A DNA stretch of 34,316 nt from Candidatus Xenobia bacterium (GTDB lineage Bacteria; Vulcanimicrobiota; Xenobia; Xenobiales; QWHO01), in the NCBI GenBank assembly GCA_045863235.1, contig BTUM01000084.1:1-34316 (forward strand). Reading direction: 5' to 3'. Positions 18,001 through 24,000 of this stretch are shown one piece after another. Position 1 is the stretch's first letter. Each line of letters begins with the position of its first letter. Made by a program: the position numbers.

Positions 18001-21000
18001 GCGTTCGACAGGGAATCCTGCTCGACTCTTGAATCACGTTCAAGCTCAAACTCTGCGGAGGGAGGTCGCCATGGCTGGTTGGTCAAGTCGCACCAGAAAT
18101 CGTCTCATCGCGATGTTCTGGCTGTTTGCTTGCGCCTACCTGCTGGTGGGGCTGCAACTCTTCCGGGTGCAGGTTGTTGACCAGAAGCGTTTCGGTTCCA
18201 TCGCCAGGGCGCAGCAGGAAGGGGATCTGGAGATCCCTGCCCTGCGTGGTGATATCCGTGACCGCAACAACATCGTTCTGGCCACCAGTCTGGCCCTCTA
18301 CTCCGTAGCGGTGAATCCTCGCGAGGTGCGCGATCGGGCCGCGACCGCCAGGGCCCTGAGCGAGCACCTGCACAAGAGCGAGGCCGAGCTGGAGCGGATC
18401 CTTGCCAGCGGCGCAACCTTCGCCTGGGCCGAGCGCAAGGTCGAAGACAGTGTCGCCGAGAAGGTGCGCGAGTTGAAGCTGCCCGGCGTGTTCCTGCTCA
18501 AGGAGCCCAACGGGCGCCGCTTCTACCCCAAAGGCCGTCTGGGCTCGCACCTTCTCGGCGCGACCGGCATCGACGATCAGGGGCTGGACGGACTCGAGGC
18601 CGCTTACGACCAGTCGCTGGGTGGGCGGCCCGGCCTGGCCCGAGTGTTCCTCGACCGAGATGGTTACGCGATGCCTGACGCCGCCACCCTGATCCGCCCG
18701 GTGCAGGAAGGGCGCAACGTCATCTTGACGCTGGACGAGACGATCCAGTACGTGGCCGAGCGCGAGTTGGCGAAGACCGTCAAAGAGTCCAACGCCAAGG
18801 GCGGCATCTGCCTGGTCATGGACGTGAAGACGGGGGAGATGCTGGCCTGGGCCATCGCCCCCGACTTCCCGGCCGACAAGTTCTCCGAGGTTCCCCCCGC
18901 CCTGCGCCGCAACCGGGCCATCACCGACCCCTATGAGCCGGGCTCGACCTTCAAGGTGTTTACCGTCGCGGCCGCCCTGCAAAACGGGGTGAAGCCCGAC
19001 GACGTGTTCACCTCGGGCGGAGTGCTCAGCATCGGCGGCTGGACCATCCATAACGCCAACGACGGACTCGATGCCGCCGGGGTGGAGACGGTCACCAGCA
19101 TCCTGACTTACTCCTTCAACGTGGGCACCGCTTCGATCGCCCTCAAGATCGGACGCAAGGCTCTGGGAGAGAGCCTGTCCGCCTTCGGTTTCGGCCACCC
19201 TACCGGAGTCGACCTGGTGGGCGAGTCGGAGGGAATCGTCAATCCTTACAAAGGCTGGGCTGACATCGACCTGGCCACCACTTCCTTTGGCCAGTCGGTG
19301 GCGGTCACCCCGATTCAGCTCATCTCGGGGATGCAGGCCATCGCCAACAACGGGATAAGACTGCGCCCTCACGTCGTCAAGGCGGTCGTGGACGGGGAAG
19401 GCAATATCATCAAGCGTATCGAGCCTCAAGAGCTGGGTCGGCCCATCTCTCCCGAGACGGCCCGTCAGATGCGCGACATTCTCCTCAACGTTTGCGAGAA
19501 GGGCACGGGCAAGCGGGCCCGCATCCCTGGTTACCTGGTGGGCGGGAAGACCGGCACCGCCCAGGTGGTCGACAACGGGGTCTACGCAGGAGGGCGCTAC
19601 ACGGCGTCGTTCCTCGGCCTGGCCCCGGTGGACAACCCCCGCATCGTCGTGCTGGTCAAGATCGAGGAGCCTACCCCGGTTTACTGGGGGGGCGTGATCG
19701 CCGCTCCCGTCTTCCACAACGTCGCCAAGGAGGCGCTGTGGAAGCTGGGGGTTCGACCGAACCAGAAAATCGTCGAGGAAACGGCAGCCCTCGAGTAAGT
19801 CTACGGAGGAGGTCCATTCGGTGAGCAAAGACATCGAGCAGTTTCTGGAAGACTTCCTGGGACATCCGGTCCCACGCCCCAAGCGGCCTGCGGCCGAAAT
19901 CATGTGGTCGGGCACGGTGCCGTCCTTCCAGGGGCCGCGCCTGGACGTGTCCCGTAAAGGCAAGAAACGGTGGGTGACTCGTCTGTCCCAGAAGCCTGAC
20001 CTGCGGCGCTTTACAAACCAGCTTCCCATGCTATAATGGCGAGGATTTTTCCTCCAGACCGATCGGTAATAATGCAATGATATCAACGTTTCCCGGGAAA
20101 GGGGTCGGCGGATGACACTGGATGAGATGGCTCGATTGTTGAATGCAAGTCAACCATCGGGCCTCCCTGCCATCCCGATCGAGGGGCTGGCCTACCACTC
20201 CCGGGCGGTGCGTCCGGGAGATGCCTTTGTCTGCATCCCCGGCACGCAGGTGGATGGAGCTCGCTTCGCAGGTGAGGCAATCGCTCGGGGAGCGGCCGCT
20301 CTGATCGTCGAGCCGGGCGCGCTGGTGCCGGCCGAGGTGCCTACTCTGCGCGTCCCGAACGCCCGCAAGGCCCTGGCCCGCCTCTCCGCTGAGATGCACG
20401 GACGGCCGGCCGATTCCATGATGGTCATGGGCGTCACCGGCACCACCGGCAAGACCACCACCACCCACTTCTGCGAGGCCGTGCTCAAGGCCAAAGGTCT
20501 CAACCCTGGCCTGATCGGCTCGATTCACGCCAGGGTCGGCGACACGACCCGCCTGCTGGCCAATACCACCCCCGAATCGCTCGAGTTGCACGGCCTGCTC
20601 GCCGACATGCGCCACGCCGGCCAGGATGCGGTGGTCATGGAGGTTACCTCGCACGCCCTGGCCCTCGACCGCGTGCACGGTATCCACTTTGACCTGGCTG
20701 TTTTCACCAACCTCAGTCGCCACCATATCGACTTTCATGGCAATCTGGAGAGCTATTTCCGCTCCAAGCTCAGACTGTTCCAGAACCTGGGCACCCGCGA
20801 GCGCAGGCTGTGCCCGCCATTCGCCGTGCTCAACCTGGACGACCCCTATACCCCCCGCATCGTGCCCACTTTGCGCGTGCCCTACATCACCTACGGCCTG
20901 CACCCCGACTCCCACGTGCGAGCCGAGGAGATCGTGGCCCATCCCGGTGGGGTCAACTTCCGGGTGATCACTCCCCTGGGTCAAAGACGGGTCCACCTCA

Positions 21001-24000
21001 AGCTCTCGGGTCTGTTCAACGTGGCCAACGCCCTGGCCGCCATCGCCACCGGGCTGGCTCAGCGGGTCGAACTGGAGGACGTGCTCCAGGCTGTGGAGTC
21101 GGTCACCGGGGTGCGAGGCCGCTTCGAGCTGGTGCGCGAGGGACAGGACTTCACCACGGTGGTCGATTATGCCAGCACCCCCGATGGGCTGCGCTGCGTG
21201 CTCGAGTCGGCCCGTCCCATCACGCCGGGGCGGGTCATCCTGGTCTTCGGCTGTCCGGGTGAGCGAGATCGCGGACAGCGCCCGCTGATGGGCGAGATCG
21301 CCGGCCAGAACGCCGACGTGGTCGTGCTCACCTCGGATAACCCTCGCTCCGAATCTCCCGCCTCGATTCTGGCGGACATCCGGCGCGGCGGGGTGGGCAC
21401 TCCCGCCACCTGGGAAGTGGAGCTCGATCGGGGGCTGGCCATCAGCCGGGCCGTGGCCATGGCCCAACCGGGTGATACCCTGCTGATCACGGGGCGCGGT
21501 CACGAGACCCACCAGATCTTGCGCGATGGCGCGGTGCCCTTCGACGACCTGGAGGTGGCCCGTCAGGCCGTGCGACTGCGCCTCAATCGCTCCGGCAAAC
21601 GCGAGCGCCGCAACGCTTCGCCCACGGTCTGGACCGAGCGCCGTCGCCCCACCTCGGCGGAGATGCCCGCGCTCCTGCGCGACCCCCGGTAAACCAGCTC
21701 CAATAACTAAAGGAAATCAATGCTACCATTTGCGTTGAATAAAATTCAGAGGAGGCGGGAGTGATGCTCCGCCTCACGCCGCTGGCCCTGGCGCTGCTCA
21801 CCGGGTTTGGATTCACCCTGGTGAGCATGCCCTTTTTTATCGGCTGGATGCGCCGGCTCAAGTTCGGCCAGGCCATCCGCGAGGAGGGGCCAAAGAGCCA
21901 CTTTGACAAGGCCGGAACCCCGACCATGGGAGGCGCGGTGCTGGTGCTGGGCGGCTTTCTGGGCACCCTGTGGAGTGGCTTTACGCCTGCCCTGGCCATG
22001 CTATGGGTGCTCATCCTCGGTGGAGCGGCTCTGGGCGCCAAGGACGACCTGGCCAAGGTGATCAAGCGTCACAACGCCGGCCTCAAGCCGCGCCACAAGC
22101 TGGTCCTGCAGCTGGGCCTGGGTCTGCTGGCCGGGCTCTACCTGGTCTTCGTGGCCAAGGAGACCCGGCTGGTCATCCCGGGCTGGGGCTCCATCGACAG
22201 CGCTGTCCTCATTCTGGCTCTCTCGCTGCTGGTGGTGACCGCCACCACCAACGCGGTCAACCTGACCGACGGGTTGGACGGGCTGGCCGGCGGCACCGTC
22301 AGCGCCTCGCTGCTGGCCTACCTGTGCATCGCCCTGGCGGTCGGCCGACCCGAGCTGGCCCTCAGCTGCGCCGCCCTGATCGGGGCCTGCCTGGGATTTC
22401 TCTGGTTCAACTGCTACCCGGCCCGCATCTTCATGGGCGACACCGGCTCGATGGCCCTGGGGGCTGCCCTGGCCGGCCTGGCGCTGCTGACCCGGACCGA
22501 GTTCTGGCTGCCCGTCATCGGCGGCGTCTACGTGGCCGAGACCCTGTCGGTGATGCTCCAGGTGAGCTACTTCAAGCTCACCAAAGGCAAGCGCATCTTC
22601 CGCATGAGCCCGCTGCATCACCACTTCGAGGCCACCAGCCCGGAGATGAAGGTCACCGTGCGCTTCTGTATCGCATCGGCCCTGCTGGGAGCGGTCGGAG
22701 TGCTGGCCTTCCTGGGGGTGCGATGAAGGGCAAGCGGGTAGCCGTCCTGGGTATGGGCAAGAGCGGCATCGCCCTGGTGCACGAGCTGAAGGCGCGCGGT
22801 GCGCTGCCCTTCATCAGCGACCAGCGCTCGAGCGAGCAGCTGCAGCAGGCCCTGGAGCAGCTCCACGACGTCCCCTACGAGACCGGCGCTCACACCGACC
22901 AGGTGCTCGAGCAGGACATGCTGGTCATCAGCCCCGGGATCTCGGTCCACGCCCCCATCGTCCGGAAAGCCCTGGAGAAGGGGTTGGAGGTGGCCGGCGA
23001 GGTGGAGCTGGCCTACCGCTTCAGTCGCGCCCCCTTCGTGGCCGTGACGGGCACCAACGGCAAGTCCACCACCGTCACCCTGATCCACCACATGCTCGAG
23101 CCGCGCAGCATCCTGGCCGGCAACATCGGCAACCCGCTGGTGGCCGAGGTGGGCGATCTGGGCGAGGATCGCCTGGTGGTGGCCGAGATCTCGAGCTTCC
23201 AGTTGGAGACCACCCACCGCTTCCGCCCCCACGTGGCCGTGCTGACCAACATTACCCCCGACCATCTCGATCGCCATCCGAGTCTGGAGGAGTATCAGGC
23301 CGCCAAGGCCCGCCTGTTCGCCTACCAGACCGCGCAGGACTTCGCCGTCTTCCCGGCCGACGACGCTCCCTCCCAGTGGATCCTCGAGCGCCTCAAGGAG
23401 GGCCGCCTGCCCGCCTGGCTTCCCGGCTTTCCACCACCCGATGCCCCCGCCCGGCCGCAGGTGCTGGAGTTCTCGGCCACCCACCCGGTGGAGCGCGGGG
23501 CCTGGCTGCAAGACGGCCAGATCGTGCTCAAGCTGCACGACCAGCCCCGGGTCCTGTTCCCCTGGAGCTTCCCGGGTCTGCCCGGTCCCCACAACCTGCT
23601 CAACGCCCTGGCCGCCGTCTGCGCCGCCGGCGCCCTCGGGGTGGAGCCGGAGAAAATGCGTCGGGCCCTGGAAGGCCACCATCCCCTGCACCATCGCATG
23701 GAGGTGGTGGCCGAGGTGGGCGGGGTTCGCTTCGTGGATGACTCCAAGGCCACCAACGCCTCCTCGGTGGAGGCCGCCCTGGAGACCTTCGAAGGCCCCA
23801 TCGTGCTGATCGCCGGGGGCAAGGAGAAGGGCACCGACTTCACCGAGCTCGGTCAGGCCATCGCCCGCCGGGTGCGCCACCTGGTGCTGATCGGCGAGGC
23901 CGCGCCCCGCCTGGCCCAGGCCGCCGAGCAAGCGGGCCTCAAGCAGATCCACCACGCAGGCCACGACTTCCCCCGCGCCGTCGAGACCGCTCGTCGCCTG

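Follow-up and report, generated by a model that had tools for sequence, protein, structure and literature searches.

A palindromic operator at division and cell-wall genes of Candidatus Xenobia and its candidate XRE-family regulator

The division and cell-wall cluster

The genome studied here (G000; other G-numbers denote relatives, g genera, and f families) belongs to Candidatus Xenobia (Eremiobacterota). The window, i.e., the whole stretch of 34,316 nucleotides that was analyzed, carries a division and cell-wall cluster on the plus strand. mraZ, rsmH, and ftsL (16040-17986; Pfam MraZ and Methyltransf_5, and a weak DivIC/FtsL match) lie upstream of ftsI, which encodes a class B penicillin-binding protein (18071-19798; Pfam Transpeptidase and PBP_dimer). 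Then follow murE (20112-21692; NCBIfam murE above cut-off) and the gene run mraY-murD-ftsW, formed by mraY (21764-22726; Pfam Glycos_transf_4, homologues named MraY), murD (22723-24114; Pfam MurD_N, overlapping mraY), and ftsW (24114-25484; Pfam FTSW_RODA_SPOVE). A search for MraY among named genomes returned no close relative. Contigs from RNA runs cover the division cluster; they carry neither start sites nor strand. Within the window, 10 matches to the palindrome TTGAA-N5-TTCAA with at most two mismatches were found versus 3.35 expected, and none of 100 shuffles reached 10.

Operators stand before ftsI and mraY, as a preliminary description of this DNA had claimed. The one before ftsI (TTGAATCACGTTCAA, 18029-18043) is an exact TTGAA-N5-TTCAA with a score of 18.3, and it is kept in 3/3 genomes of g1, 5/5 of g4, and 0/18 others. 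A predicted SigH-type internal promoter of ftsI (18010-18034, plus strand), which consists of AGGG (18010-18013), 17 bases, and GAAT (18031-18034), has its -10 box in the left half of this operator. The operator before mraY (TTGAATAAAATTCAG, 21735-21749; one mismatch, score 15.5) abuts the ribosome-binding site AGGAGG (21750-21755), and the start site of the mraY promoter, predicted from sequence only by its extended -10 element TG-C-TACCAT (21721-21729, plus strand), would fall inside it. For murE, an operator upstream of the gene had been described; the site (TTGAATGCAAGTCAA, 20139-20153; one mismatch, score 15.2) instead falls inside codons 10-14, downstream of a predicted SigA-type promoter (TTTACA-16-TATAAT, 20010-20037, plus strand) whose letters are identical in G004. 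Relatives likewise have a site close to the 5' end of murE: 3/3 genomes of g1, 5/5 of g4, where it lies within the gene but in another frame, and 5/6 of g2, where it lies upstream of the gene in those inspected. A second murE paralogue, on contig C39 and also above the NCBIfam murE cut-off, has an operator too. murD has no operator of its own in the window, and G013 has one at the start of murD. The mraZ promoter region (15969-16044, plus strand; TTGACA at 15969-15974 and TATAAT at 15993-15998) contains four GTGG boxes with a 10-base period, which we take to be the MraZ box. Since the operator match before mraZ is weak (8.5), mraZ-rsmH-ftsL is not clearly part of the regulon.

The operator and its regulon

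Genome-wide, no inverted repeat in the intergenic DNA of G000 ranks above the palindrome TTGAA(T)-N3-(A)TTCAA (about 120 sites), which after repeat masking also comes first among 4-mer inverted dyads. This symmetric form replaces the consensus ttGAAT-N4-TTCAAg given previously, and the spacer claimed for it holds: exact TTGAA-N5-TTCAA occurs 13 times in intergenic DNA versus 0-3 times for ten other spacers, and with exactly one mismatch 109 times versus 13-33 times. At a matrix score of at least 11, 147 operator sites were obtained versus 24-38 for six other spacers, with a matrix that was seeded with part of the sites later tested. Sites are as frequent in sense (128) as in antisense (134) orientation, and their density per 100 kb is 17 in tandem, 23 in divergent, and 4.5 in convergent gaps. 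A direct repeat was ruled out, and so was a hairpin or cruciform, as the flanks do not pair.

The association with division and cell-wall genes was recovered with an independently defined gene set: 10/14 division-cluster leader genes have an operator compared with 200/4528 other genes (P 3e-11), with other spacers giving 0-1. The regulon is nevertheless not the dedicated one proposed earlier: among the 87 strong intergenic sites located close to a gene, of which about one-tenth are expected to be false, division, wall, or envelope genes account for just 22. In detail, 17 belong to division/wall, 5 to envelope, 14 to DNA/chromosome, and 51 to other or unknown functions. Targets were named via Pfam/NCBIfam, except for murG and xerC, which were assigned by eye and from their resemblance to division-cluster loci. 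They comprise division genes (both ftsZ, ftsA, ftsQ, ftsI, ftsEX, sepF, and a SPOR protein), genes of peptidoglycan synthesis and remodelling (murB, murE, murG, ddl, mraY, uppP, an amidase, two NlpC/P60, and SLT), outer-membrane genes (POTRA/BamA-like, lpxD, and slpA), and chromosome genes (dnaN, gyrB, smc, soj, xerC-like, HU, tdk, pcrA, and DNA methyltransferases). Of the genes on the earlier target list, the second ftsZ (11.3), divIC (10.1), dacB (10.0), the second slpA (9.5), and minC (9.4) score weakly. In G000, the operator is absent from mraZ, murA, the maf-mreBCD-pbp2 unit, dnaA, and parC.

The sites are conserved where the surrounding DNA cannot be aligned. The ftsA operator is found in 18/18 genomes of families f1 and f2, i.e., in all 17 besides G000, where only 4 of 15 relatives had been credited with it before, and the sepF operator in 24/27 genomes; at both genes its position and letters vary among genomes, and other spacers give footprints in only 0-4%. 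A site at the end of rlmB, before sigH, is present in 9/9 genomes of g1, g4, and g5. Genus g3 is the one genus that lacks both enrichment (N5 1-8 vs. N8 0-5 in 10 genomes) and operators at ftsA (0/3) and sepF. The operators reported earlier for g3 and G022 were thus not reproduced; the labels probably differ. Exact-match enrichment is not clear in g2, G041 has 10 versus 1 matches, yet its targets are not shared in the 5 sites examined, and 80 division-cluster loci of other phyla show no site excess (25 vs. 20-33).

These controls bear on whether AT-rich promoter DNA within an otherwise GC-rich genome could have produced the palindrome as an artefact. Such artefacts do arise: an earlier loose matrix slid into AT-rich matches and was replaced, a reversed-pattern control falsely showed enrichment in AT-rich genomes and classes until the N8 control removed it, and the matches in G014, rejected as a regulon, are mainly one repeated element. 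The operator excess is, however, spacer-specific (4- to 10-fold and more), the AT-matched expectation is 0.86 for the 10 division-cluster leader genes observed, and the footprints recur across genera; because of the spacer and footprint controls, an artefact is extremely improbable. We are highly confident that the palindrome is the operator of a real, broad regulon, and very likely it is bound by a single master regulator.

Operators and SigH promoters

G000 has a true SigH orthologue (TIGR02859, 347.9 bits; cut-off 294.8) in the context cysS-rlmB-sigH, and SigH is 83-100% identical in 36/44 genomes of the class. With the promoter consensus of Bacillus, AGGA-N17/18-GAAT is enriched genome-wide (74 and 52 vs. 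9-21), and ftsA has a SigH-type promoter in g1, g4, g8, and g9. The operators had been described as often lying on such promoters, which holds in so far as the overlap exceeds that of random positions (5%), but it concerns only about one in five sites (34/163; 31/163 in another count).

A palindrome that was itself part of the SigH promoter, either an extended -10 with a start-site signal or back-to-back -10 boxes, would require no separate regulator. The operator half-site indeed contains GAAT, and a SigH -35 is found at 17-18 bases for 22/167 half-sites versus 640/13937 intergenic GAAY. Conversely, the second half occurs in only 11/126 strict SigH promoters, in which a T preceding GAAT is rare, for 132/163 sites neither side carries a -35 and for no site do both, and g3 retains SigH (about 90%) without the sites. 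At ftsA and sepF the site shifts by genus among -10, spacer, -35, and upstream positions; since the positions move, this possibility is largely refuted and we regard it as very improbable. The operator is separate from the SigH promoter. No Rfam RNA was found between rlmB and sigH, so that the conserved rlmB-end site stands some 200 bases ahead of the SigA-type promoter of sigH, with an uncertain effect on that gene.

Candidate regulators and related systems

Where the preliminary description had left the regulator unnamed, a specific candidate can now be given, still at candidate level: an XRE helix-turn-helix protein of 145 residues (G000:C55:29410-29847; Pfam HTH_3, 34.5 bits, cut-off 23), which was picked out because strong operators precede its gene in G013 and G040. 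It is single copy and 74-100% identical in f1, f2, g8, and g9 (compared with 58-64% for FtsI in f2, g8, and g9), and its second HTH helix is invariant. The protein occurs in 29/40 relatives and is missing from one 64%-complete genome and from 10/10 genomes of g3, the genus lacking enrichment and the ftsA and sepF sites. Its gene has a best upstream score of at least 9 in 19/30 loci versus 9% for control spacers, with the self-site at an identical position in G040 and G128, while the self-sites in G000 are weak (8.8). In G097, the absence of the protein coincides with a contig that breaks off within the adjacent gene. Other observations fit less well. The XRE protein was not found in motif-rich G091 (16 vs. 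2; 95% complete, 1000 contigs), and g8 and g9 keep it at 80% without sites at ftsA (0/5), ftsI, or the XRE gene, with sepF as the only site (3/3). Seven genomes of other classes with a homologue (42-57% identical) show no enrichment over the N8 control (motif/N8 3/12, 15/39, 17/23, 12/9, 18/28, 2/23, and 8/12), and ten homologue loci of other classes show no excess of sites. Overall, we put the chance that this predicted repressor is the binder at about even.

A WalR/PhoP-like response regulator of the OmpR family (G000:C4:205130-205825), which would act like CtrA, is an unlikely binder. Its gene sits between pgeF-like and PAS kinase-like genes, its best NCBIfam matches are YycF and MtrA (both below cut-off), and it is single copy in 39/44 genomes of the class, including G091, G097, G128, and G040, with 94-100% identity over most of the order. 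Its own site (at least 9) is present in 10/10 genomes of g1, g4, and g5, but missing in 18/19 loci of other genomes, outside these genera and one g2, and the regulator with an unchanged recognition helix persists in 10/10 genomes of g3, which lacks the sites. The OmpR family prefers direct repeats, and the genome contains two strong motifs of this kind with an 11-base period, one of PhoB/WalR type, that would suit it better, although CtrA sets a precedent for palindrome binding (PMC4287350). Another regulator, e.g., TetR, Fur, GntR, MarR, or an unannotated protein, is rather unlikely. The regulators compared are part of the genome's full set, G091 is motif-rich without an XRE protein found, and moderate sites stand at TetR-like (12.0), Fur-like (10.2), and second LexA (10.6) genes, the former two named by eye; against this, XRE is the sole recurrent regulator among targets shared by G000 and five relatives, LysR is absent (0 PF00126 (HTH_1) matches in the 97.6%-complete genome), and Lrp is missing from most motif-rich genomes. 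Lrp/AsnC was rejected (PF01037 in 0/2 g5, 1/6 g4, and 0/1 G040; strong own site absent), as was Spo0A (0 matches to its C-terminal domain PF08769).

The best explanation, combining operator, regulon, and the XRE protein as binder, has a probability of roughly 0.55. In class Xenobia, a single homodimeric master regulator would bind the palindrome and coordinate division, peptidoglycan, outer-membrane, and chromosome functions, and would also control many unrelated genes. It probably represses in most cases: at ftsI, sepF, and tdk it would cover the SigH -10 box, at ftsA and ftsE the SigH -35 box, and at mraY the start site together with the ribosome-binding site. For ftsA in g4, where the operator immediately precedes the -35, it may activate. 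Operators covering SigH promoter boxes would therefore gate a SigH-driven division programme, and the XRE protein may also regulate its own SigA promoter. More tentatively, class Xenobia could have its own cell-cycle or developmental circuit, in which a lineage-specific XRE repressor gates the SigH-driven division/wall/outer-membrane/chromosome programme, with RacA-like and DnaD-like proteins and DNA methyltransferases among its members, and touches the sigH locus, without Spo0A.

Division master regulators are known in few lineages, namely CtrA, BldD, WalR, and MtrA. If true, the operator system would represent a novel mode of coordinating division in bacteria, and the circuit an independent parallel to CtrA and BldD that gives insight into a role of SigH before or apart from endospore formation. 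An operator, a list of targets, and one named candidate protein are now available for a class known from metagenomes. Its near-invariant SigH, large promoter set, and SigH-type promoter at ftsA, all beyond Bacillota and in the absence of Spo0A, bear on how the sporulation-entry circuit arose.

The operator system works like BldD or CtrA and is identical to neither. Streptomyces BldD, like the candidate, has an N-terminal XRE domain on a small two-domain protein; it binds a 4-5-4 palindrome (core TNAC-N5-GTNA) at about 167 units, among them ftsZ and genes for segregation, showing that an XRE dimer can bind such a palindrome and control ftsZ (PMC4151990). The geometry is alike, but the letters differ from TTGAA-N5-TTCAA, and the Xenobia host is diderm, with a regulon rich in peptidoglycan and outer-membrane genes and tied to SigH promoters. 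BldD was not hit among solved structures by sequence search or among the fold matches listed, and inspection of the aligned XRE C-terminal part showed no RXD-X8-RXXD c-di-GMP motif. The nearest folds of the candidate's N-terminal domain are the XRE global repressors DdrO, SinR, and ClgR (TM about 0.4 over the query, 18-26% identity), a generic similarity, and the ESM Atlas gave generic XRE clusters only. Caulobacter CtrA represses or activates, depending on position, from a palindromic box that precedes genes for division, segregation, and methyltransferases (PMC4287350); it is a response regulator with TTAA-N7-TTAA, unlike the operator here, and the conserved Xenobia OmpR regulator outlasts the sites in g3. 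A CcrM/GANTC methylation circuit is not supported (DNA methyltransferases at 41 bits, cut-off 830; GANTC without genome bias, 0.93). A SigH site is known in the ftsAZ promoter of Bacillus subtilis (PMC12421865), to which the Xenobia ftsA promoter is alike, but the gate here is the palindrome and not a 0A box, in a host outside Bacillota.

The core TGAA-N5-TTCA equals the consensus TGAAnnTnnTTCA of the LysR-family regulator MetR (PMC5002191), although the operator targets are not methionine genes. LexA was rejected as binder: in agreement with the earlier claim, recA and uvrA lack the operator (1.2 and 6.0). Of the earlier reading, a palindromic, conserved, non-SOS operator tied to division and wall genes stands, without the terms dedicated and often SigH. 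LexA has its own box, CGAAC-N4-GTTCG, which is enriched separately (14 vs. 0-4) with a near match before uvrA, and the 10.6 operator match of one lexA, a gene not named by eye, coincides with its -10 box.

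Architecture of the operator and the division cluster

In the window (contig C84), where the genes run mraZ-rsmH-ftsL-ftsI-murE-mraY-murD-ftsW, the palindrome TTGAA-N5-TTCAA lies before ftsI (18029), within codons 10-14 of murE (20139) and before mraY (21735). The genome (8.36 Mb, 65.8% GC, 97.6% complete) yielded 7131 gene calls, of which 6938 were used; since these calls came from our own script, start positions may be off. One encoded protein has homologues labelled Ca. Eremiobacterota, Vulcanimicrobiota, and Ca. Xenobium, which assigns the genome to the class Ca. Xenobia. 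Genome-wide, 13 exact intergenic matches were found versus 0-3 for ten other spacers, and with one mismatch 109 versus 13-33. With a matrix built from 132 seed sites, intergenic DNA yielded 147 hits at score 11, where six other spacers gave 24-38, and 95 hits at score 13, where they gave 5-22; the real sites number about 120, or more if weak ones are included. After repeat masking, the two top 4-mer inverted dyads were TTGA-N7-TCAA and TGAA-N5-TTCA. The sites are strand-symmetric (128 versus 134) and, at 4.5 per 100 kb, rarer where neighbouring genes converge than where they are tandem or divergent (17 and 23), and tests for a direct repeat structure within them or pairing flanks around them saw neither. 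This combination gives the palindrome the build of a dimer's operator, and the spacer-specific counts, matrix, dyad ranking, symmetry and gap distribution together bear out the operator proposed in the preliminary description.

The division cluster is spread over several contigs (C2, C8, C9, C39, and C84), across which part of the machinery is duplicated (two ftsZ, two murE, several mreB-like genes, two PBP2-type genes), and nrdR follows ftsA. Upstream of mraZ, a GTGG box occurs four times with a 10-base period (16010-16044), the pattern expected of MraZ self-control. Upstream of murE lies a perfect palindrome, TTTCCCGGGAAA (20089-20100), which is absent from the relative G004 and probably due to chance.

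Targets and conservation of the regulon

The tie between the operator and division and wall genes was confirmed with a keyword-free set of 23 genes, each hit by no fewer than 5 of the 80 mraY neighbourhoods taken from other phyla. Of its unit-leading genes, 10/14 carry a site at score 11, compared with 200/4528 other leaders (P 3e-11), against an AT-matched expectation of 0.86 and counts of 0, 0, 0, and 1 for other spacers; the ten include the in-gene murE site, and the matrix seeds overlap some of the tested sites. The relatives offer a test free of this circularity. Upstream of ftsA, the site is present in 18/18 genomes of families f1 and f2, the studied genome counted (score 11 reached in 17, 10.0 in the other one), and in 0/11 outside them, one of which is truncated; this comparison covered 30 loci, one dropped for a missing gene start, with control spacers at 2-3%. 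The sepF site occurs in 24/27 genomes, missing from G097 and two genomes of genus g3. After four of 30 loci with partial matches were dropped, the ftsI site was kept in 8/8 genomes of genera g1 and g4 and 0/18 others, and a site near the murE start in 13/14 genomes of g1, g4, and g2 and 0/12 others. The palindrome persists across genera while its letters and position vary, and these counts represent four to six lineages, because kin are not independent.

Exact matches were compared with an N8 spacer control in 121 genomes; the tallies include the unpublished genome G122, which enters no other claim. Enrichment was found in g1 (11-18 versus 1), g4 (26-31 versus 2-4), g5 (18/1 and 17/7, motif/N8), and the single genomes G040 (9/1), G091 (16/2), G097 (15/1), and G041 (10/1). 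G014 (16/4) owes its matches mostly to one repeat, a dispersed element with the palindrome at its centre (L118, L119, L123, L129, L169). Over the same control, enrichment was weak or absent in g2, g7, g8, and g9, and none was seen in g3 or in other classes, where 64 genomes of f14, f18, and f19 had 0-3 matches.

The regulon had been described as dedicated to division and envelope. Adjoining genes were annotated for the 87 intergenic sites at score 13 that lie no more than 300 bases from a gene; by the author's sorting, 17 of these sites serve division/wall genes, 5 envelope genes, 14 DNA/chromosome genes, and 51 other or unassigned genes. The DNA/chromosome targets include dnaN (two sites), gyrB, smc, soj, HU, tdk, pcrA, a DnaD-like protein, and two methyltransferases; no site was found in this genome at mraZ, murA, the maf-mreBCD-pbp2 unit, dnaA, or parC. 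Most division units are therefore covered, yet they are a minority of targets: a real, conserved operator tied to division stands, whereas its regulon is broad rather than dedicated. The operator very likely marks a broad, conserved regulon of cell-cycle type in the class Xenobia, for which there is a candidate regulator. No publication on the motif or regulon was found in a literature search that took in few subscription papers or regulon databases and no supplements, so an earlier listing is possible; the searched passages of PMC11484240 do not mention "division".

Three proteins with an HTH-like N-terminus and a coiled-coil-like tail (C37:45205-45771, C1:347412-348110, C90:4648-5160) have weak operator sites (scores 9.4-10.5), two of them with a weak HTH_17 match; their arrangement is reminiscent of RacA.

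Relation to SigH promoters

The SigH of this genome is a true SigH (C103:7450-8094; L317:451-1095), 83-100% identical in 36/44 class genomes. The pair AGGA-N17/18-GAAT, taken here as the SigH promoter consensus, is enriched (74 and 52 versus 9-21), giving more than 100 predicted promoters. That the sites are often on sigma-H-type promoters holds in part: 34/163 overlap or closely precede a SigH-promoter -10, compared with 5% of random positions, which amounts to about one site in five. The second palindrome half is present in only 11/126 strict SigH promoters, none of the 163 sites has a SigH -35 on both sides, and the ftsA site moves from over the -35 (g1) to just upstream of it (g4) to near the ribosome-binding site (g2). 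The operator is thus a distinct signal superimposed on promoters. At the rlmB end, approximately 300 bases before sigH, a strong site is present in 9/9 genomes of g1, g4, and g5 and in 0/21 others at score 11.

TTCGACA (18004-18010), which we take to equal a 0A box, adjoins the SigH -35 of ftsI on its upstream side and is kept in G004; TTCGA(A/C/T) precedes AGGA in several further SigH-type promoters. Neither Spo0A nor its C-terminal domain was found in this genome, and Spo0A was rejected as the binder.

Candidate regulators

Target comparison across G013, G031, G040, and G014 brought out a single-copy XRE gene (C55:29410-29847), and the odds that its product is the dimer binding the operator are about even. 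Its identity is 74-100% in f1, f2, g8, and g9, 66% in G040, and 36-48% in g6/g7; it was not found in 10/10 g3 genomes, nor by profile search of two of them. Its upstream region scores at least 9 in 19/30 loci (9% for controls); weak sites covering the predicted -35 are conserved there, and G040 and G128 share the position of a strong site. The G097 contig breaks off within the gene found after XRE in relatives. The structural model pairs an XRE domain with a helical C-terminal portion (pLDDT 83); its matches, to ClgR, DdrO, and SinR, are generic only. Against XRE, it was not found in motif-rich G091, seven genomes of other classes carry it without visible motif enrichment, g8/g9 retain it but have few sites, and its own upstream sites are weak in the studied genome.

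A less likely binder is an OmpR-family regulator (C4:205130-205825). Most of the order has it at 94-100% identity and G091 has it as well, but g3 also carries it, its recognition helix unchanged, and the genome contains direct-repeat motifs available to it. Its neighbours (C4:204070-206856; L475) are a pgeF-like gene on one side and, on the other, a PAS kinase-like gene of 348 residues with no obvious membrane segment, names given by eye; the locus is probably an essential two-component system. Whichever protein binds, it would be a dimer that mostly represses via occlusion and gates SigH-driven expression of division, wall, and chromosome genes. The proposed system would work like BldD, which combines an XRE domain, a 4-5-4 palindrome, and ftsZ control (PMC4151990), and like CtrA (PMC4287350), but membership tests placed it outside both. 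In B. subtilis, ftsAZ is known to be under SigH control (PMC12421865).

Among other families, Lrp/AsnC was rejected as it is missing from most motif-rich genomes. LysR was rejected because no LysR-family HTH was found, unusual for an 8.4-Mb genome; the operator core nonetheless equals the MetR box (PMC5002191). LexA has a separate box of its own. Three LexA-domain genes are present: C53:35014, C1:322498, with its own box GTGGAC-N4-GTCCAC, and C85:7935, upstream of a polymerase-like gene named by eye.

The direct repeat TGTHA-N6-TGTHA (54 intergenic, 4 coding; e.g., C27:69614, C62:47153), of PhoB/WalR type, is likely the box of an OmpR-family regulator. Another strong direct repeat, CTGAA-N6-CTGAA (99 intergenic, 13 coding; e.g., C2:61236, C16:109905), often stands ~23-25 bases before opposite-strand genes with N-termini rich in S, P, and A, and may represent a second large regulon or promoter class. 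CTAG (0.20) and GTAC (0.51) are strongly under-represented in the genome.
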